Of a stretch of 41,822 nt of DNA, positions 12,400-32,472 are shown one piece after another. The stretch lies in UHGV virus genome UHGV-0104471. One strand, 5' to 3'. The notes beneath the pieces were generated by a model. The model was not told the DNA's origin. It saw only the letters and a program-made list of their open reading frames with translations, and searched no databases. Made by a program: the position numbers and the translations under genes. The number at the start of each line of letters is the position of its first letter. The first letter of the stretch is position 1. Origin of the DNA: a virus.

Positions 12400-13341
12400 T
12401 TAAATGCCATCAACGTACGAAATGGTTTCTTTGTACACTGGCTCGACTGCACCCAGCTTGCCGTAGTAAGTGACGATCTGATACAGACCGCGATACTGCA
12501 CCGGCACGCTCTGAAGCGGAACCAGCGGGTAGCGGACGTATTTTTTATCGTTGGTGTACGCAACCATGCGATCCTTATTCCCCACACCACGGCCTTTCAG
12601 CCATTTAACCGCGCGGATATTCAGCGGAACACCGTTCTGGTGATAGCTGATGGTGTTGGTCTGAAGGTACGTCAACAGGGACTGGTTACCCGCAGATGAA
12701 ACGATGATGCTGGACAACAGAGCAAACTGCTCAGGCGGGATCAGCAAATCACGCGGAACCACAGAGTAACCGGAAGCGGCCCACGCATCAGACAGCACCT
12801 GGTTAATGCTTGCGCGGATTTCGTCCGGTGTTGAGGTTGCCCACGTTTTGGCAGCGTTGTTGACAGGAACACCGTTCAGGGTAACAAGGCCTTTCAGGTT
12901 TAATGCGGAATCACCAACATACACCTGTTCATCGTTATCCATCTGCCATTTCAGTTGCATCCCGTCATACTTCTGCGTATCAATCGGGCGTCCGACCTGC
13001 TGAGCAGCCTGCAATTCTATGACCGTCCAGCCCAGTTCCATCCCCCACAGGTTCAGCGGGTTACCGGATTTGCCGATATCCACGTTCACGCCAGCAATAG
13101 CGGTTGAGTCTTTGCCTACCCAGTTTTTGCCATTCGGATTTGCGCCAGTACCCGCAGCGGCGAAGCTGGTATTCGTCCAGCTGGAAATGTCATCTGCGAT
13201 GGAGACATCTTCACGCAACTGAATATCGCGGGTCCAGGTGTACCCCACCAGTGGCAGGTTCAGCGTCTGGTCGAGTCGCTCCAGCTCCCCGATGAGAAAG
13301 GCACCAGAGCTGTCAACGGTTGCCTGATCAAAAGTAATCAT
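12400..13341 (-). CDS. major capsid protein (putative), 313 aa
   Basis: Size and position after the protease/scaffold-like and small structural genes. Confidence 0.55.
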   Translation of the reverse strand: MITFDQATVDSSGAFLIGELERLDQTLNLPLVGYTWTRDIQLREDVSIADDISSWTNTSFAAAGTGANPNGKNWVGKDSTAIAGVNVDIGKSGNPLNLWGMELGWTVIELQAAQQVGRPIDTQKYDGMQLKWQMDNDEQVYVGDSALNLKGLVTLNGVPVNNAAKTWATSTPDEIRASINQVLSDAWAASGYSVVPRDLLIPPEQFALLSSIIVSSAGNQSLLTYLQTNTISYHQNGVPLNIRAVKWLKGRGVGNKDRMVAYTNDKKYVRYPLVPLQSVPVQYRGLYQIVTYYGKLGAVEPVYKETISYVDGI

Positions 13342-21288: not shown

Positions 21289-21782
21289 TGCTGCCCCCAC
21301 AAACAGACTTCACGCTCAATCTCACGGCGAGTCATCAGCCCTTTCCATTGCTTACCGCCAGCATATGTCCAGCGACGTAGCTGATCACATGCGCCTTTGA
21401 TATCGCCCTGGTTTATTTTGCGAAGAAGCGTCGATGTTCTGAAATTGCCAGCACCCACGTTGTAAACGAATGAGTAAAGAGCGCCGCGCGTTGTTTCCGG
21501 TATATCGACTTTGATGTACGGGTTAATTTGTCTGGCGACAGTGGCAAGATCTTTATTCAGGAGGGCTTTGCATTCTGCTTCGGTATACGTTTTACCGAGC
21601 ATGATGTCTTTTCCGGTGTGTCCGTGACATACAGTCCATACGCCAACGATATCTTTGTATGGTATGTAGCTGACACCTTCCAGGCCATCGTCACCACTCG
21701 GACCAGTGATGAGCACAGACGCTATGGCAACAGCCCCACCACCAATAGCAGCAGCAACAGCCTTGCGTAATGATGGCGACAT
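21285..21782 (-). CDS. R: SAR endolysin (lysozyme), phage 21 R-type
   Basis: Near-identical to recalled phi21 R / DLP12 RrrD sequence; N-terminal signal-anchor-release segment [20 protein letters not shown]. Confidence 0.85.
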
Positions 21783-21997
21783 TATTCACCTCTCGCAGCC
21801 TTACGCTTGTCTTCTCTGATTTTGAAATACAGATTTGTCAGATAAGTGAGAAAACCCAACACAAGGCTTCCAAGCACTCCAATCGCAGCCCACTGTGACG
21901 GACTGACCTGATCCAACCACTGCAAAAACCAGTATCCTGCACTACCAGCAGATGTTCCGTAGGCAATGCCAGTTGAGATTTTGTCCATTGATTTCAT
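21782..21997 (-). CDS. S: pinholin, phage 21 S-type (dual start MKSM...)
   Basis: Matches recalled S21 / DLP12 EssD sequence [33 protein letters not shown]...; two TM segments. Confidence 0.85.
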
Positions 21998-22115
21998 AGC
22001 AACGCCTCCGCCAGTAACGGATTGCGTAGTTCTTATATTGGGAAGGGAGAAAAAGAAGGCCGTAGCATAACTATCACTGATGAGTTCAGGATAGCCAGTG
22101 GCTACGGCTCAGTTT

Positions 22116-22191
22116 TGGTGCTGGTTAACGGACTTGACCCGCTACCAATTCGCTTACAAGGCGACCGCTCTACCATTGGAGCTAAACCAGC
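22116..22191 (-). tRNA. tRNA-Thr(UGU)-like gene, 76 nt
   Basis: Hand fold: acceptor GCUGGUU/AACCAGC, D-arm GCUC/GAGC, anticodon loop CUUGUAA, T-arm AGCGG/CCGUU (one G-U), 3' ACCA encoded; T-loop has G at position 54. Confidence 0.5.
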
Positions 22192-22196
22192 ATGTT

Positions 22197-22271
22197 TGGC
22201 GGGACAGCGTGGACTCGAACCACGATAAGAAGGTTAACAGCCTTCCGTAATGACCTTTATACGACTGACCC
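22197..22271 (-). tRNA. tRNA-Asn(GUU)-like gene, 75 nt, imperfect acceptor and D stems
   Basis: Hand fold: anticodon arm GAAGG-CUGUUAA-CCUUC, T-arm CGUGG-UUCGAGU-CCACG, 3' GCCA; acceptor stem has one U-U mismatch; resembles E. coli tRNA-Asn around the anticodon and T arm. Confidence 0.4.
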
Positions 22272-22275
22272 AAAT

Positions 22276-22318
22276 AAAAAAAAGCCACCGTTGCAACTTA
22301 AGAGTCACTAACGGCAGC
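22276..22318 (-). terminator. candidate terminator (tR'-like) between Q and the tRNA-like genes
   Basis: On - strand: GCUGCCG...CGGUGGC stem (two G-U pairs, long loop) followed by U8; weak. Confidence 0.3.
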
Positions 22319-22335
22319 TTACCTTCTAATTATGG

Positions 22336-22854
22336 CTAAATGGATAATTGCATGTCAAGGCTTTTAACAGCAACATGCTTAACTTTCTCAACACGTTTAC
22401 GCATTTTGAAAGCATTTTGCATTGGCTGGTACAAAACAAATAACGACGCTTTCAGGATGTCGTCAATTTCGTTTCTACAGGTTGCCAGTGAAGGTTTTCT
22501 CCATCCCTCGCCACCACGTCCACACATCTTGCGTGGCTTTGCAGTCGCGTGATAGTAGGATGCAATTGCTCGCTTAGATGAACCATGAGCGTAGTAGCTG
22601 AGGAGGATGCCAAAGGCTTTCTTGTCAATGTACATGACGGAATCGACGACCTGAGAAATCAACATTCCATCATCATCATTACACATTGGCCTTGTCATAA
22701 CTCTTCCCGGCTCTACGCTCTCCATGAACTTCGCTATTACGCTGCTCATGCGCTTTTCCAGACGACCTGAATAAACCCATGCGCCCCACAGTTCAAGCCA
22801 GCCATTCAGCCACTCGTGCTGCTCTTTGGTGAGGTTTAGTTCTCTTATGCTCAT
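22336..22854 (-). CDS. Q: late-gene antiterminator Q (Phage_antitermQ family, DLP12 QuuD-like)
   Basis: Position between ninH and the lysis cassette; shares recalled QuuD motifs (LELWGAW, CNDDDGM). Confidence 0.6.
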   Translation of the reverse strand: MSIRELNLTKEQHEWLNGWLELWGAWVYSGRLEKRMSSVIAKFMESVEPGRVMTRPMCNDDDGMLISQVVDSVMYIDKKAFGILLSYYAHGSSKRAIASYYHATAKPRKMCGRGGEGWRKPSLATCRNEIDDILKASLFVLYQPMQNAFKMRKRVEKVKHVAVKSLDMQLSI

Positions 22855-29309: not shown

Positions 29310-30097
<788 letters not shown>

Positions 30098-30247
30098 TGG
30101 GCAAGGTGTTCTGGTCGGCGCATAGCTGGTGAAAAAATTATTTAATGCGGTGTATTGGCTGATTGTAACCCCATGTAACATCTTGCCGTCACCATTTCGG
30201 TGGTTAGATTTTTAATAAAAAAAAACAAATGTATAGCAAGGTTTTTT

Positions 30248-30727
30248 ATGGATAAAATTAATTACCCACCCCTGTTTGAGCCAGGGTTCCATGACATGGA
30301 TGAAGCTGGATTAAAATCGTATTGTGTCGATTGCTTTCCTTCATCATCCAGGCGAGGCATGCTATACTGTAATTTTATACAGCTACTCGAATCTATTCGA
30401 GAATTATCTGCTCAATATGGCTGTTTTACAGAAATATGGGTTGATGGTTCATACACCACGTCTAAACCAGAGCCTGATGATATTGATATTTTGTTGGTAT
30501 GTGACTATAGCAATATAAACTCAATACCTGTCATGCTTCGGGGCCGCGTCGATAATTTGCTTGACCGAAACTACATCAAACAAAACTACAAAATTGATGT
30601 CCTACTACTCATGAAGAATTTAGATGACCCTAACTATGATTATGAGTACTGGCGTAGTTACTGGCGCGGTTGGTTTGGTTTTGATCGCAGTGAAAACCCG
30701 AAAGGGTTAGTGAGGATTTTTTTATGA
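30248..30727 (+). CDS. predicted minimal nucleotidyltransferase-fold protein, 159 aa, in the rexA position
   Basis: Motif WVDGSYTTSKPEPDDIDILLV fits the GS-x(9-13)-DhDh signature of Pol-beta-superfamily NTases; ATG at 30248 preferred over track GTG at 30200; no similarity to recalled RexA. Confidence 0.5.
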   Translation: MDKINYPPLFEPGFHDMDEAGLKSYCVDCFPSSSRRGMLYCNFIQLLESIRELSAQYGCFTEIWVDGSYTTSKPEPDDIDILLVCDYSNINSIPVMLRGRVDNLLDRNYIKQNYKIDVLLLMKNLDDPNYDYEYWRSYWRGWFGFDRSENPKGLVRIFL

Positions 30728-31656
30728 ATGATAAATCAATGTTTAAAAATTGCGATAAACGCATTGATTTCATTCAAAAAGAAGTCGATGCAATGAAGCA
30801 AAACAAAACCAGGTCCTTTGCTGACATGCTTCTTTATCGCTCCATGGATTCTCATCTGAGCGATTTGAAGGCCGAAAAATTAAAGCAAGATAGTCGGCAC
30901 CCACTTATCGATTTTTTTGAGCTGCGGCTGAAAGGCTCTGAGGTTGACTTTGGCTCTATTCCTTTAGAGCTGCTTGGGGCTATTTCAACAAATCTTGCAG
31001 CGCTAATACAAAGAGCAACACACAAAATTGCCTCAGGCAAGGACTCAAAAAAAGTTCCCTACGACGTGAAAAGCTCCTTAAACCTCAGGCTGGCTGATTT
31101 ATCCCCTGGGTCTACAAAATTGGGCGTCACCTTCTCTACAGGAATAGCAGAATTAGTAGAAACAGTACCCAGCAAGGCTGTAAAAGGCATATTCGATTTG
31201 TTGTTAAGCGATGACGACAACAACTTCATGAATCACGTCGCTGAAATTGGATACAATTCCACTGTAAGCCTTAAGAGAATCGTAGAGGAATGCGATAAAC
31301 ACAACTTAACATTTGATGCAAGTTGGACCGGTCCATTTAGTAATGGCACCAAGGTGGCAACTATTGACTCCAATAAAATTAAGTACTTGGTGAGTAGACT
31401 TACATCAACCATTTCATCCCCTCCCATTACTGAAACGGTTACAGGCGAACTGGTCGTTCTATCCAAATATGGGAAGCTGGAGCTTGATGTTGGTGGTGAA
31501 CATTTAAAGGCTTCCTATCCGATTGAAATGCTAGATTTAATACAAAAAAAACACAAGGTCGGACAGATTGTTTCTCTTTTAGTGGAGACTACTGAGATTC
31601 ACAATGATCGCATAGGTCTGTACCGTAAAAACCATCTTGTTAAATCGGTTCTTTAA
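30724..31656 (+). CDS. hypothetical protein, 310 aa, partner of the NTase-like gene, in the rexB position
   Basis: ATGA overlap with the upstream gene; SD GAGGA; no motif recognised apart from a weak R-x4-H (RSMDSH); not hydrophobic, unlike RexB. Confidence 0.5.
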   Translation: MNDKSMFKNCDKRIDFIQKEVDAMKQNKTRSFADMLLYRSMDSHLSDLKAEKLKQDSRHPLIDFFELRLKGSEVDFGSIPLELLGAISTNLAALIQRATHKIASGKDSKKVPYDVKSSLNLRLADLSPGSTKLGVTFSTGIAELVETVPSKAVKGIFDLLLSDDDNNFMNHVAEIGYNSTVSLKRIVEECDKHNLTFDASWTGPFSNGTKVATIDSNKIKYLVSRLTSTISSPPITETVTGELVVLSKYGKLELDVGGEHLKASYPIEMLDLIQKKHKVGQIVSLLVETTEIHNDRIGLYRKNHLVKSVL

Positions 31657-31972: not shown

Positions 31973-32145
31973 CAGCATTCAAAGCAGAAGGCTTTGGGGT
32001 GTGGTGAAGGGTTCATGGATGGGAATATGTCGCACGTAAAGCGGCGAGGCCTGCGGAACTATTGCCGAATTGAAGTCGGCCGAAGCAGGTCGAAATGGGT
32101 CTCCCACCTACCACACCACCAAAGCTAACTGACAGGAGAATCAAG

Positions 32146-32472
32146 ATGGATGCACAAACACGCCGCCGCGAACGTCGCGCAGAGAAACAGGCTCAATGGA
32201 AAGCAGCAAATCCCCTGTTGGTTGGGGTAAGCGCAAAACCAGTTAACCGCCCTATTCTCTCGCTGAATCGCAAACCGAAATCACGAGTAGAAAGCGCACT
32301 GAATCCGATAGACCTTACGGTGCTGGCTGAATACCACGAACAGATTGAAAGCAACCTGCAACGTATTGAGCGCAAGAATCAGCGCACATGGTACAGCAAG
32401 CCACGCAGTGAAATGGGTGTGACTTGTGTTGGTCGCCAGAAAATGAAATTAGGCAGCAAACCACTTATTTGA
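32146..32472 (+). CDS. N: antitermination protein N (lambda-type)
   Basis: MDAQTRRRERRAEKQAQWKAANPLLVGVSAKPVNRPILSLNRKPKSRVESALNPIDLTVLAEY... matches recalled lambda N; RBS ACAGGAGAATC; track ORF N-terminal extension is rejected. Confidence 0.9.
   Translation: MDAQTRRRERRAEKQAQWKAANPLLVGVSAKPVNRPILSLNRKPKSRVESALNPIDLTVLAEYHEQIESNLQRIERKNQRTWYSKPRSEMGVTCVGRQKMKLGSKPLI

Follow-up and report, generated by a model that had tools for sequence, protein, structure and literature searches.

Phages 21, Sf6, SfI, BTP1, HK446, and mEp506 carry a pair of tRNA genes, tRNA-Asn(GUU) and then tRNA-Thr(UGU), that are separated by 5 nt and lie between the terminator tR' and the holin gene. This cassette, which occurs in many lambdoid and P22-like phages, has been known since phage 21 and Sf6 were sequenced: it is annotated in GenBank, it has been described in papers, and 369 of 5,426 complete E. 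coli genomes (about 7%) have the pair in their PGAP annotation. The 933W-type Shiga-toxin phages have a similar arrangement, with the tRNA genes ileZ-argN-argO, which decode codons that start with A, between Q and stx. These are also tRNA genes between Q and the late or lysis genes of a lambdoid phage, but they are Ile and Arg species and have no sequence relationship to the pair that we discuss here. Stx phages that have a 21-type pR' and tR' (i.e., Nil2 and 2851) have the leader without the Asn/Thr cassette. Finally, the same two anticodons occur in the same order in P1, N4-like, and Cyrano-like phages. In P1 (with a 2-nt spacer) and in Cyrano the two genes are adjacent, while in the N4-like phage a tRNA-Ser lies between them.

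Host tRNAs with these anticodons are the targets of bacterial defense nucleases. The PARIS nuclease AriB cleaves tRNA-Lys(UUU) of E. coli as well as its tRNA-Thr(UGU) and its tRNA-Asn(GUU) between nucleotides 40 and 41; its motif is U36AAU39, and the substitution U39A abolishes cleavage (PMC12409363). The Lys, Thr, and Asn variants of phage T5 rescue from PARIS, and Lys is always needed to escape the PARIS system of strain B185 (PMC12409363). The OLD nuclease of P2 depletes tRNA-Thr(UGU), which is cut after nucleotides 27-29; its further targets are Gly(UCC), fMet, Val, and Pro, and Asn(GUU) is outside the target list (bioRxiv 10.64898/2026.07.10.737580). Expressing the HK446 tRNA-Thr(UGU) restores the plating of OLD-sensitive phages, while E. 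coli tRNA-Thr(UGU) does not, although direct resistance to cleavage was demonstrated for the tRNA of Bas32 and not for that of HK446 (same preprint). OLD is reported to be triggered by RecBCD inhibitors and by proteins of the phage recombination locus that carries Abc2, and, given that HK446 has a protein inhibitor (Oad2) too, the authors of the preprint suggest that the HK446 tRNA may be an adaptation to a temperate lifestyle (bioRxiv 10.64898/2026.07.10.737580).

We analyzed 41,822 nucleotides of the virus genome UHGV-0104471, and we refer to this whole stretch as the window. The original prediction was that the window contains two tandem tRNA-like elements of 75-76 nt on the minus strand, 5 nt apart and each with an encoded CCA, and it proposed checking them with ARAGORN and covariance models and against the host's tRNA genes. 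ARAGORN, Rfam, and our reading of the sequence all agree with this description (Table 1). ARAGORN reports exactly two tRNAs, and both match the Rfam model RF00005 over its full length (1-71), with E values of 3e-9 for tRNA-Thr and 2e-9 for tRNA-Asn and with scores that can be compared with the model's gathering score of 29 bits. At a permissive Rfam threshold, the window contains no further tRNA-like element. Because the scores are so far above the threshold, and because the paired positions of the cloverleaf covary (see below), we take both elements to be more than chance matches; judged by their sequences, they are genuine phage tRNA genes for Asn(GUU) and Thr(UGU). "tRNA-like" was too weak a label, as these are the named and already annotated tRNA-Asn/tRNA-Thr cassette.

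Table 1. Features of the tRNA locus and its surroundings, in window coordinates
Feature	Position	Strand	Details
Late promoter pR'	22329..22358	-	-35 TTGACA at 22358-22353; -10 CATAAT at 22334-22329; 11/12 matches in promoter scan
Q antiterminator gene (phage 21/L/Sf6 type)	22336..22854	-	ORF; PF06530, E 1.1e-25
tR', intrinsic terminator of the short pR' leader	22272..22320	-	Hairpin 22320-22282; U8 tract to 22272
Mobile tRNA cassette (mosaic module, ~218 bp)	22054..22271	-	Homology breakpoints among loci with near-identical Q
tRNA-Asn(GUU)	22197..22271	-	75 nt; encoded CCA; discriminator G73; ARAGORN and Rfam (55.3 bits)
Inter-tRNA spacer	22192..22196	-	5 nt, AACAU on the minus strand; read from sequence
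tRNA-Thr(UGU)	22116..22191	-	76 nt; encoded CCA; G1-C72, C2-G71, A73; ARAGORN and Rfam (54.7 bits)
S21-type pinholin gene, first late gene 3' of the cassette	21782..21997	-	PF04971 "Bacteriophage P21 holin S", E 1.3e-35

The details of the two cloverleafs are also as predicted. In tRNA-Thr, the acceptor stem and the D stem are fully paired and indeed all of the stems are intact, but the T loop reads GUCAAGU, which places a G at position 54. Of its tertiary nucleotides, U8, GG, U33, and A58 are present and C14 and G54 deviate; C14 is a trait of the whole family, while G54 is specific to this allele. tRNA-Asn has all of the tertiary nucleotides that we checked (U8, A14, GG, U33, and UUCGA) and the expected E. 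coli-like anticodon and T arms: its anticodon loop (CUGUUAA) is identical to that of E. coli asnT, and its T arm matches asnT exactly over 13 nt (TGGTTCGAGTCCA). Its acceptor and D stems, which had been described as weakened, contain the mismatches U4.U69 and U13.U22. In E. coli, AsnRS recognizes G34, U35, U36, and G73, and ThrRS recognizes G1-C72, C2-G71, G35, and U36; by sequence comparison, the window's tRNAs carry all of these identity elements.

The cassette is 96-98% identical to the annotated pairs of BTP1, Sf6, phage 21, SfI, and HK446. Relative to the phage 21/Sf6-type pair, tRNA-Asn is 100% identical and tRNA-Thr is identical at 73 of 76 nt; the 5-nt spacer is also kept in phage 21 and Sf6 and differs by one base in HK446. 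The region around Q, pR', and the Q-binding element is of the Sf6/L type. Unlike phage 21 and Sf6, the window's phage is a myovirus-type lambdoid phage, with structural genes like those of vB_EcoM-689R2 and SEN34. The pairs in P1, N4-like, and Cyrano-like phages are less similar. P1's tRNA-Thr is 78% identical to ours and also has G39, but the Asn genes of these phages belong to another lineage (with a GATGGTG... acceptor), and that of P1 keeps U39. Furthermore, their tRNAs have canonical scores of 73-75 bits, versus 55-61 bits for the lambdoid family, and they lie in a different genomic context. Because the identity between the window's genes and those of E. coli is just 68% for Thr and 62% for Asn, it is unlikely that they were captured from the host. 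The D arm, variable loop, and T loop of tRNA-Asn match the tRNA-Asn of a T4-like Mosigvirus.

The location of the pair between Q and the lysis genes was predicted correctly. The window's Q has 597 relatives in IMG/VR and is labelled Q in related phages; the holin is homologous to S21-71/68 of phage 21, and the endolysin and then Rz lie beyond it. The region of pR' is identical to the promoter region of Sf6. It includes a putative Q-binding element (AATTATCC/ATTTAGCC at 22349-22334), which we assigned by following a proposal for phage L (PMC8022706), and by analogy to the annotation of phage 21, transcription probably starts near 22322. pR' is the sole strong promoter-like site upstream of the tRNAs, as the other hit on this strand matches at 9/12 positions and is inside Q. 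The hairpin of tR' has a folding energy of -20.2 kcal/mol (z = -4.7; none of 200 shuffles was as stable), and its U8 tract directly abuts the first nucleotide of tRNA-Asn. A simple terminator scan found 0 sites and missed tR', which was recovered by RNA folding; it is homologous to the annotated terminator of phage 21 (PMID 1704887) and to tR' of Sf6. Because the cassette appears to lack its own promoter and lies directly behind the Q-controlled terminator, it would form the first ~160 nt of the late operon's transcript. Q would allow RNA polymerase to continue past tR' into the tRNAs and the late genes, and RNase P and 3' processing enzymes would then excise both tRNAs from the transcript. 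The phage L paper leaves undecided whether the late mRNA is cut to release the tRNAs (PMC8022706).

The cassette is a mobile, mosaic module. We compared 80 loci whose Q is at least 98% identical: 45 of these have no tRNAs. About half of the phages with the same Q lack the cassette. The upstream junction is where the U tract of tR' meets the first nucleotide of tRNA-Asn, and 32 of the tRNA-less loci lose homology there, at 22271-22278. The downstream junction is about 62 nt past the 3' end of tRNA-Thr, at 22054, where 28 loci that do have the pair lose homology. HK446, whose Q and pR' are of the lambda type, has the same cassette, and there too it starts within the U tract of the terminator. 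A scan of GTDB species representatives found only six loci. Four are from an Escherichia sp., E. albertii, Phytobacter, and Shimwellia, and the other two are on small contigs of metagenome-assembled genomes that are assigned to Segatella and Collinsella. The latter two are probably mis-binned, and the scan shows a range within the Enterobacteriaceae. As a feature of a genome the cassette is ordinary, but presence/absence polymorphism with such clean junctions provides natural isogenic comparisons.

Across the alleles of this family, there are compensatory changes at 9 of 21 base pairs in tRNA-Thr, with 94% of cells paired, and at 8 of 21 pairs in tRNA-Asn. None of 500 shuffles reached the observed covariation for either tRNA, and in slid controls the paired fraction fell to 22-55%. 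This covariation shows that the cloverleaf is under selection in the family. The original prediction had left it open whether the tRNAs are functional or decaying. The mismatches in tRNA-Asn are real, but they should not be read as decay: 20 of 22 Asn alleles keep U4.U69 while adjacent pairs change with compensation, so U4.U69 and U13.U22 are conserved traits of the family. In fact, the window's Asn allele is the commonest one and is identical to 106 copies in the loci that we fetched, including those of Sf6, phage 21, HK446, and ST64T.

The window's tRNA-Thr is more unusual. Relative to the allele of phage 21, Sf6, and HK446, it has A26G, which is a common variant, G45U, which is rare, and U54G. 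Position 54 is T in 62 of 63 other tRNAs that we sampled, and we found the G54 allele in just one other IMG/VR contig, which has a different phage background and whose tRNA additionally carries the acceptor-stem mismatch A5.C68. There is no identical copy of the Thr gene in the 5,426 complete E. coli genomes (the best match is 98.2%). Judging from these alleles, G54 is a rare derived allele and not a trait of the family, so "possibly decaying" fits the window's Thr copy only. The Rfam score falls by 7 bits (54.7 versus 61.5 for the Sf6 allele), and in the predicted fold G54 pairs with U60, which shrinks the T loop to 5 nt. With U54G and G45U, this tRNA may be less stable, less active, or impaired, and the rare allele offers a naturally occurring way to gauge the T-loop damage that a tRNA of this kind can withstand.

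What are these tRNAs for? We lean, if only slightly, towards the view that this is a genuine pair of the phage 21/Sf6 type, expressed in a Q-dependent manner, that replaces host tRNAs that have been cut by defense nucleases, with a modest supply of ACA decoding as a secondary benefit. Replacement of cut tRNAs has better recent support than does codon supply. Under this mechanism, the phage copies would keep the anticodon loop and rebuild the anticodon stem, which would remove the nuclease's determinants. The window's anticodons are those of the host tRNAs that the nucleases target, as is the case for the T5 tRNAs that act against PARIS and for the tRNA-Thr of T4, T5-like phages, and HK446 that act against OLD; the HK446 tRNA-Thr that was tested is the major allele of our Thr family. 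Two independent nucleases, AriB and OLD, cut the matching host tRNAs, and the phage copies differ from the host's where these nucleases act. The anticodon stem is GUCGC/GCGAA in the window's tRNA-Thr versus ACUGA/UCAGU in the host's, and GAAGG/CCUUC in tRNA-Asn versus GCGGA/UCCGU. The host's A31-U39 pair is replaced by C31-G39 in Thr and by G31-C39 in Asn, so that both lack the host's U39 determinant, and position 41 is altered as well (positions 39-41 are GCG versus UCA in Thr and CCU versus UCC in Asn). At positions 27-31, where OLD acts, tRNA-Thr differs from the host's at four of five sites. Like nuclease-resistant viral tRNAs, then, the pair has an unchanged loop and a stem that is rebuilt at the positions that are relevant to cutting by AriB (39 and 41) and by OLD (27-31). 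U39 is replaced in six of the seven coliphage lineages of Thr(UGU) that we examined and in six of seven for Asn(GUU). The window also encodes an anti-RecBCD protein of the P22 Abc2 type. That the window's own alleles would resist cleavage, and that tRNA-Asn would have any part in this, we infer from these similarities.

Some observations do not fit so well with the replacement of cut tRNAs. P1's tRNA-Asn and T4's tRNA-Thr retain U39. By ARAGORN and Rfam, the window contains no tRNA-Lys(UUU), Gly(UCC), fMet, Val, or Pro; because tRNA-Lys(UUU) was always needed in the published work, the pair alone cannot defeat the PARIS system of B185. Unlike the T5-type arrays of virulent phages, this is a set of two tRNAs in a temperate phage, and it covers AriB's targets incompletely. 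We also count against this role that about half of the phages with the same Q lack the cassette, that Asn(GUU) is not a target of OLD, that the authors of the OLD preprint themselves suggest a temperate-lifestyle adaptation for the HK446 tRNA, and that the window's Thr allele may be impaired.

The Asn+Thr duo recurs in P1, N4-like, and Cyrano-like phages, which raises a more specific idea: the pair could be a dedicated two-tRNA module for counter-defense. [quoted passage not shown] Shared targets would account for the pair's recurrence in lambdoid, P22-like, P1, N4-like, and Cyrano-like phages, and the site behind tR' would time the supply of resistant tRNAs to bulk late protein synthesis. The conserved oddities of these tRNAs (Thr's C14 and, for Asn, U4.U69, C9, and a variable loop of 4 nt) would then be determinants of evasion and not defects. 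We find this plausible, but we would sooner bet against it than for it, and we found no paper that ties PARIS-type nucleases to the lambdoid tRNA-Asn or to the two tRNAs as a unit. The cassette does offer a concrete case in which one can test why temperate phages have tRNA-Asn and tRNA-Thr in particular. The idea that the tRNAs provide immunity to a tRNase of the phage's own is not supported: in a PADLOC scan of 34 non-structural ORFs, we found no OLD, PARIS, or HEPN nuclease, and the only matches were a candidate PDC-M63A/B pair, whose activity is unassigned, and an orphan methylase.

The original prediction suggested that the tRNAs might supply codons for the late genes, and that codon usage should be compared to the host's. 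The phage would raise its supply of decoders for codons that it favors (ACA and AAY) and so speed late protein synthesis, with no involvement of defense. Our comparison to 42 genes of E. coli K-12 lends this weak support. ACA accounts for 10.6 of 1,000 codons in late ORFs and 15.2 in other ORFs, versus 5.4 in the K-12 genes (ACA is enriched about twofold), and Asn codons account for 47-50 per 1,000 in the window versus 37.6. But ACA makes up just 1 of 21 Thr codons in the gene for the major capsid protein, and its enrichment is higher in early genes, whose translation comes before the tRNAs would appear. Also, AGA, AGG, and AUA are 3- to 13-fold enriched, and the phage has no matching tRNAs for these. 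E. coli already has four genes for tRNA-Asn. According to the SfI paper, ACA is biased in the same way there (17.3 versus 7.1), but its authors saw no bias for Asn. In the capsid gene of phage L, 24 of 25 Asn codons are AAC (PMC8022706); in the window's capsid gene, 15 are AAC and 5 are AAT. Finally, when OLD is active, overexpression of E. coli tRNA-Thr(UGU) gives no rescue while phage alleles do (bioRxiv 10.64898/2026.07.10.737580), so the sequence of the tRNA matters and not its amount alone. Overall, we think it rather unlikely that codon supply is the main role of the pair.

It is more doubtful still that the cassette in this phage is a relic under relaxed selection, with at least the Thr copy no longer a working tRNA. 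As we have described, U54G affects a near-invariant base of the T loop, G45U affects another position of tertiary contact, the T loop is predicted to shrink, and the G54 allele is rare, with an additional mismatch in the sole other copy. In other lineages, the second tRNA has been lost or remodelled: that of ST64T/L scores 42 bits and is not called by ARAGORN, two loci have tRNA-Asn only, and there are the tRNA-less loci. On the other hand, the window's tRNA-Asn is the major allele, and the stems, identity elements, and anticodon loop of its tRNA-Thr are unaltered, with an Rfam score 25 bits over the threshold. Because two different phage backgrounds carry G54, that allele has persisted. And selection on structure is clear for the family overall.

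It is very improbable that the phage tRNAs make up for a host tRNA gene that is disrupted by integration, an idea raised for HK446 in the preprint on OLD (bioRxiv 10.64898/2026.07.10.737580). Many lambdoid and P22-like phages do integrate into tRNA genes, such as thrW. But thrW encodes tRNA-Thr(CGU), not UGU, and integration rebuilds it (PMC8022706). We rejected this idea because the attP core of P22/thrW has no match in the window even with up to three mismatches, because outside of the tRNAs the window shares no stretch of more than 11-13 nt with thrU or asnT, and because Rfam finds no other tRNA-like element; also, the cassette is behind a lytic-phase terminator and not under a lysogenic promoter. 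The least credible idea of all is that the tRNAs serve mainly as sites for RNase P and RNase Z, which would detach the terminator leader and define the 5' end of the late mRNA, with decoding incidental: although the cassette starts exactly where the U tract of tR' ends, at the extreme 5' end of the late transcript, and although published work leaves undecided whether the tRNAs are excised, a signal for cleavage alone would have no need of the constant anticodons, loops, discriminators, and synthetase identity pairs that accompany covarying stems in these alleles, about half of the phages that share this Q, pR', and tR' lack the cassette, and the HK446 allele works in trans from a plasmid (bioRxiv 10.64898/2026.07.10.737580).

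A plus-strand ORF of 68 amino acids (22022-22228) overlaps the tRNAs, and it was suspected from the beginning to be non-coding. We agree: it has no PHROG family, and in 21 of the 95 distinct relatives the part of it that lies outside of the tRNAs is interrupted by early stops. A nested ORF of 50 amino acids is wholly inside the tRNA genes and matches only one PHROG, also of 50 amino acids and with no assigned function. We rejected both as genes; the plus-strand ORFs at this locus, and the 50-amino-acid PHROG family that was built from one of them, are annotation artifacts.

The window encodes two tRNA genes between Q and the lysis genes, as had been predicted from the sequence: ARAGORN finds exactly two in the 41.8 kb, and the Rfam tRNA model aligns to both along its full length, with scores above its gathering score of 29 (see table). 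The genes are 75 nt (Asn) and 76 nt (Thr) long, they lie in tandem with a 5-nt spacer, and both encode the 3' CCA. The finer details of the original prediction were also correct. In the covariance-model alignment, tRNA-Thr has perfect acceptor and D stems and the T loop GUCAAGU, which places a G at position 54, and tRNA-Asn has mismatches in the acceptor stem (U4.U69) and in the D stem (U13.U22). tRNA-Asn has the anticodon loop of E. coli asnT and also shares with that gene an exact 13-nt match in the T arm. The identity set of E. coli AsnRS is the GUU anticodon and G73, and that of ThrRS is G1-C72, C2-G71, G35, and U36; all of these are found in the window's Asn and Thr sequences.

Features of the window near the tRNA genes, and others that bear on their function
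Feature	Position	Strand	Evidence
Major capsid gene	12400-13341		PF09950
S21-type pinholin	21782-21997	-	
Endolysin, lysozyme family	after pinholin	-	Pfam Phage_lysozyme; matches phage 21 SAR endolysin region
Rz	after endolysin	-	
tRNA-Thr (anticodon TGT)	22116-22191	-	ARAGORN; Rfam tRNA model, 54.7 bits
tRNA-Asn (anticodon GTT)	22197-22271	-	ARAGORN; Rfam tRNA model, 55.3 bits
50-aa ORF	22098-22250	+	phrog_34205 (50 aa), E 9e-35
tR' hairpin, then eight U	22320-22282	-	fold -20.2 kcal/mol, z -4.7
pR', near consensus	TTGACA 22358-22353, CATAAT 22334-22329	-	promoter scan
Q antiterminator gene	22336-22854	-	PF06530
S24-type repressor gene	29384-30094		
175-aa ORF	within 30200-31653	+	M63A, E 2.4e-41; Pfam DUF6932
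310-aa ORF	within 30200-31653	+	M63B, E 7.5e-45
N	32095-32469		

On the minus strand, the order is Q, the late promoter pR', the hairpin and U8 tract of tR' (the Q-controlled terminator of the late-operon leader), tRNA-Asn, tRNA-Thr, pinholin, endolysin, and Rz, and the first base of tRNA-Asn is immediately 3' of the U-tract. We identified pR', the Q-binding element, tR', and the late-operon leader by alignment with phage 21 and Sf6 and from the GenBank annotation of both. Because the sole other promoter-like site on this strand from Q to the holin is weak (a 9/12 match within Q, by promoter scan), the tRNAs should be made upon read-through of tR': Q would take RNA polymerase past the terminator and both tRNAs would be transcribed.

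The cassette is already a known and annotated feature. In a comparison with 50,697 phage records (megablast and blastn), it matches at 96-98% identity in phage 21, Sf6, SfI, BTP1, mEp506, and many Salmonella and Escherichia phages, usually with annotation as tRNA-Asn and tRNA-Thr. According to the SfI paper, Asn(GUU) and Thr(UGU) genes in tandem also follow Q in Sf6, ST64T, PS3, and phage 21 (PMC3636060). HK446 carries the pair (locus L004, 811-966; ARAGORN), although its GenBank record leaves it unannotated and a preprint on OLD gives this phage just one tRNA, Thr(UGU) (bioRxiv 10.64898/2026.07.10.737580). The pair is annotated in 369 of 5426 complete E. coli genomes, and among GTDB species representatives it is limited to a few Enterobacteriaceae. 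Enterobacterial phage tRNA-Asn also turned up in GTDB on contigs of 3.9 and 6.9 kb (L215 and L219) that are binned as Segatella copri and Collinsella sp.; these contigs in Bacteroidota and Actinomycetota MAGs are most likely mis-binned phage contigs. Another tRNA-Asn, from the T4-like Mosigvirus vB_EcoM_WFK (L220, 1494-1565), shares with the lambdoid one an unusual D arm (CGTATAAAGGT.ATTACGG), the 4-nt variable loop TTAT, and the T loop, so this lineage circulates between virulent and temperate coliphages. What our analysis adds is covariation evidence of selection on the cloverleaf, the exact boundaries of the cassette, the rarity and likely cost of U54G in the window's copy, and a link from both anticodons to published tRNase targets.

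We gathered the alleles of 200 loci and reduced them to an alignment of distinct sequences. Two-sided changes are seen at 9 of the 21 cloverleaf pairs of tRNA-Thr (for example, U3-A70 and U6-A67 both change to C-G), with 94% of cells paired, and at 8 of 21 for tRNA-Asn. None of 500 shuffles attained the values of either tRNA, and sliding the partners collapses the pairing. Judging from this alignment, several apparent "defects" are conserved family traits: the U4.U69 mismatch of tRNA-Asn is retained in 20 of 22 alleles, even as the neighboring pairs 6-67 and 7-66 vary with compensation, and the G27.A43 mismatch and C14 of tRNA-Thr are family traits as well. One very divergent Asn allele has the same acceptor stem, with the other three arms all rebuilt. 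The original prediction had allowed for either functional tRNAs or decaying pseudo-tRNAs. Given the covariation, the conserved traits, and the identity elements, we argue that the family comprises working tRNA genes and not relics, and that decay is possible for the window's Thr copy alone. One IMG/VR locus (among L093-L212) has a chimeric tRNA-Thr(UGU) that combines the phage family's 5' acceptor strand and D arm with a remainder, from position 26 onward, identical to E. coli thrU; this suggests recombination between phage and host tRNA genes, or else an assembly chimera.

The window's tRNA-Asn is the commonest allele in the fetched loci (106 copies). Its tRNA-Thr differs from the commonest Thr allele (89 copies; found in phage 21, Sf6, and HK446) at three positions: A26G is a common variant (23 copies), G45U is rare, and G54 was found in one other contig when 2.9 million viral contigs were searched for exact matches. 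This second contig comes from another phage, and its allele carries an A5.C68 mismatch in addition. Complete E. coli genomes contain no identical copy of the window's tRNA-Thr (the top match is 98.2%), and position 54 is T in 62 of 63 other tRNAs from the fetched loci. The U54G substitution costs about 7 bits (54.7 versus 61.5 with Rfam), and in the predicted fold, G54 pairs with U60 and the T loop shrinks. Since positions 45 and 54 make tertiary contacts in canonical tRNA, the window's copy may be a hypomorph or at an early stage of decay. The cassette's second tRNA has been remodelled in ST64T (L009, 948-1016) and phage L: it retains the Thr acceptor stem but has a rebuilt, shorter anticodon arm and a variable region that is 4 nt shorter. 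It scores 42.1 bits with Rfam and is not called by ARAGORN; the phage L paper gives it as Leu(UAA), by tRNAscan-SE (PMC8022706). It may be decayed or repurposed.

In IMG/VR, we looked at 80 loci with a Q protein that shares 98% or more identity with that of the window: 33 have the pair, 2 have tRNA-Asn alone, and 45 have neither. In 32 of the tRNA-less loci, homology to the window ends at 22271-22278, where the tR' U-tract meets the first base of tRNA-Asn, and in 28 of the pair-bearing loci it ends at 22054. The same cassette, starting within the terminator U-tract, is found in HK446 even though the Q, pR', and tR' of that phage are unrelated and of the lambda type. Given these sharp edges and the unrelated Q of HK446, the cassette is a module that spans about 218 bp (22054-22271) and recombines independently of Q type and of holin type.

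As to why phages keep this module, we lean towards counter-defence as the main benefit, ahead of codon supply; the two are not mutually exclusive. The window's tRNAs would stand in for the host's Thr(UGU) and Asn(GUU) when these are targeted by defence tRNases. AriB, the nuclease of PARIS, cuts E. coli tRNA-Lys(UUU), Thr(UGU), and Asn(GUU) between nt 40 and 41, beside a shared U36-A-A-U39 motif; in tRNA-Lys, U39A abolishes cleavage and A41C lowers it; and Lys, Thr, and Asn variants from T5 jointly neutralise PARIS (PMC12409363). The tRNase OLD of P2 cuts after nt 27-29 and thereby depletes Thr(UGU), Gly(UCC), fMet, Val(UAC), and Pro(UGG); it is reported to be triggered by RecBCD inhibitors and by proteins from the phage recombination locus in which Abc2 is encoded, and expression of HK446 tRNA-Thr(UGU), unlike that of E. 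coli Thr(UGU), lets OLD-sensitive phages plate again (bioRxiv 10.64898/2026.07.10.737580). Thr tRNAs are cut by HepS of Gifsy-1 too (PMC13043305). By sequence comparison, the tRNA-Thr gene of HK446 is the major allele of the lambdoid cassette family, and the window's early region encodes a P22 Abc2-type anti-RecBCD protein (PF11043, E 2.8e-42). The anticodon loops of the window's tRNAs are those of the host, with rebuilt anticodon stems (27-31 / 39-43): GUCGC / GCGAA for Thr (host, ACUGA / UCAGU) and GAAGG / CCUUC for Asn (host, GCGGA / UCCGU). Thus, U39 is lost and position 41 is changed in both. Of the 7 coliphage lineages compared for each tRNA, 6 have replaced U39; the exceptions are T4 Thr, where position 40 is changed instead, and P1 Asn. 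Asn and Thr occur together again in P1, N4-like, and Cyrano-like phages, and variants of the cassette carry an extra tRNA for Gly(UCC), Met(CAU), Arg(UCU), or Phe. On the other hand, PARIS escape as studied always needed tRNA-Lys, which the cassette lacks; Asn is outside the target set of OLD; and HK446 has, in addition, a protein that inhibits OLD. Because the anticodons are those of published tRNase targets, a counter-defence role can be tested experimentally.

It is possible, but we are doubtful, that the main benefit is simply to serve codons that are enriched in the phage, as had been proposed for the late genes. Relative to 42 E. coli K-12 genes, the window's ORFs (which are rough calls) are rich in ACA (10.6 per 1000 in late ORFs and 15.2 in other ORFs, versus 5.4) and in Asn codons (AAC and AAT combined; 50.0 and 46.6, versus 37.6), in agreement with the SfI report (PMC3636060). 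However, the enrichment of ACA is greater in early genes, the major capsid gene uses ACA for just 1 of its 21 Thr codons, and no phage tRNA matches AGA, AGG, or AUA, whose enrichment is 3- to 13-fold. Codon supply may contribute, but it leaves the choice of Asn and Thr unexplained. A pure RNA-processing signal would not account for the conservation of anticodons and identity elements or for the action of the HK446 allele in trans, so we reject it. Compensation for integration is rejected as well, as the window contains neither a thrW attP core nor fragments of host thrU or asnT. With Rfam at a permissive threshold, there are no other tRNA-like elements in the 22.8 kb at 19000-41822.

We found no support for plus-strand coding ORFs over the tRNAs. 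The 68-aa ORF that overlaps them, already suspected to be non-coding, has no match among PHROG families, and outside the tRNAs its reading frame is interrupted in 21 of 95 relatives. Antisense to both tRNAs is the 50-aa ORF, whose PHROG match falls entirely within the tRNA genes; this PHROG family appears to have been built from spurious ORF calls over the cassette. Finally, two adjacent ORFs elsewhere in the window match the PADLOC candidate defence system PDC-M63, and they lie between the repressor gene and N, which is the location of rexAB in lambda.
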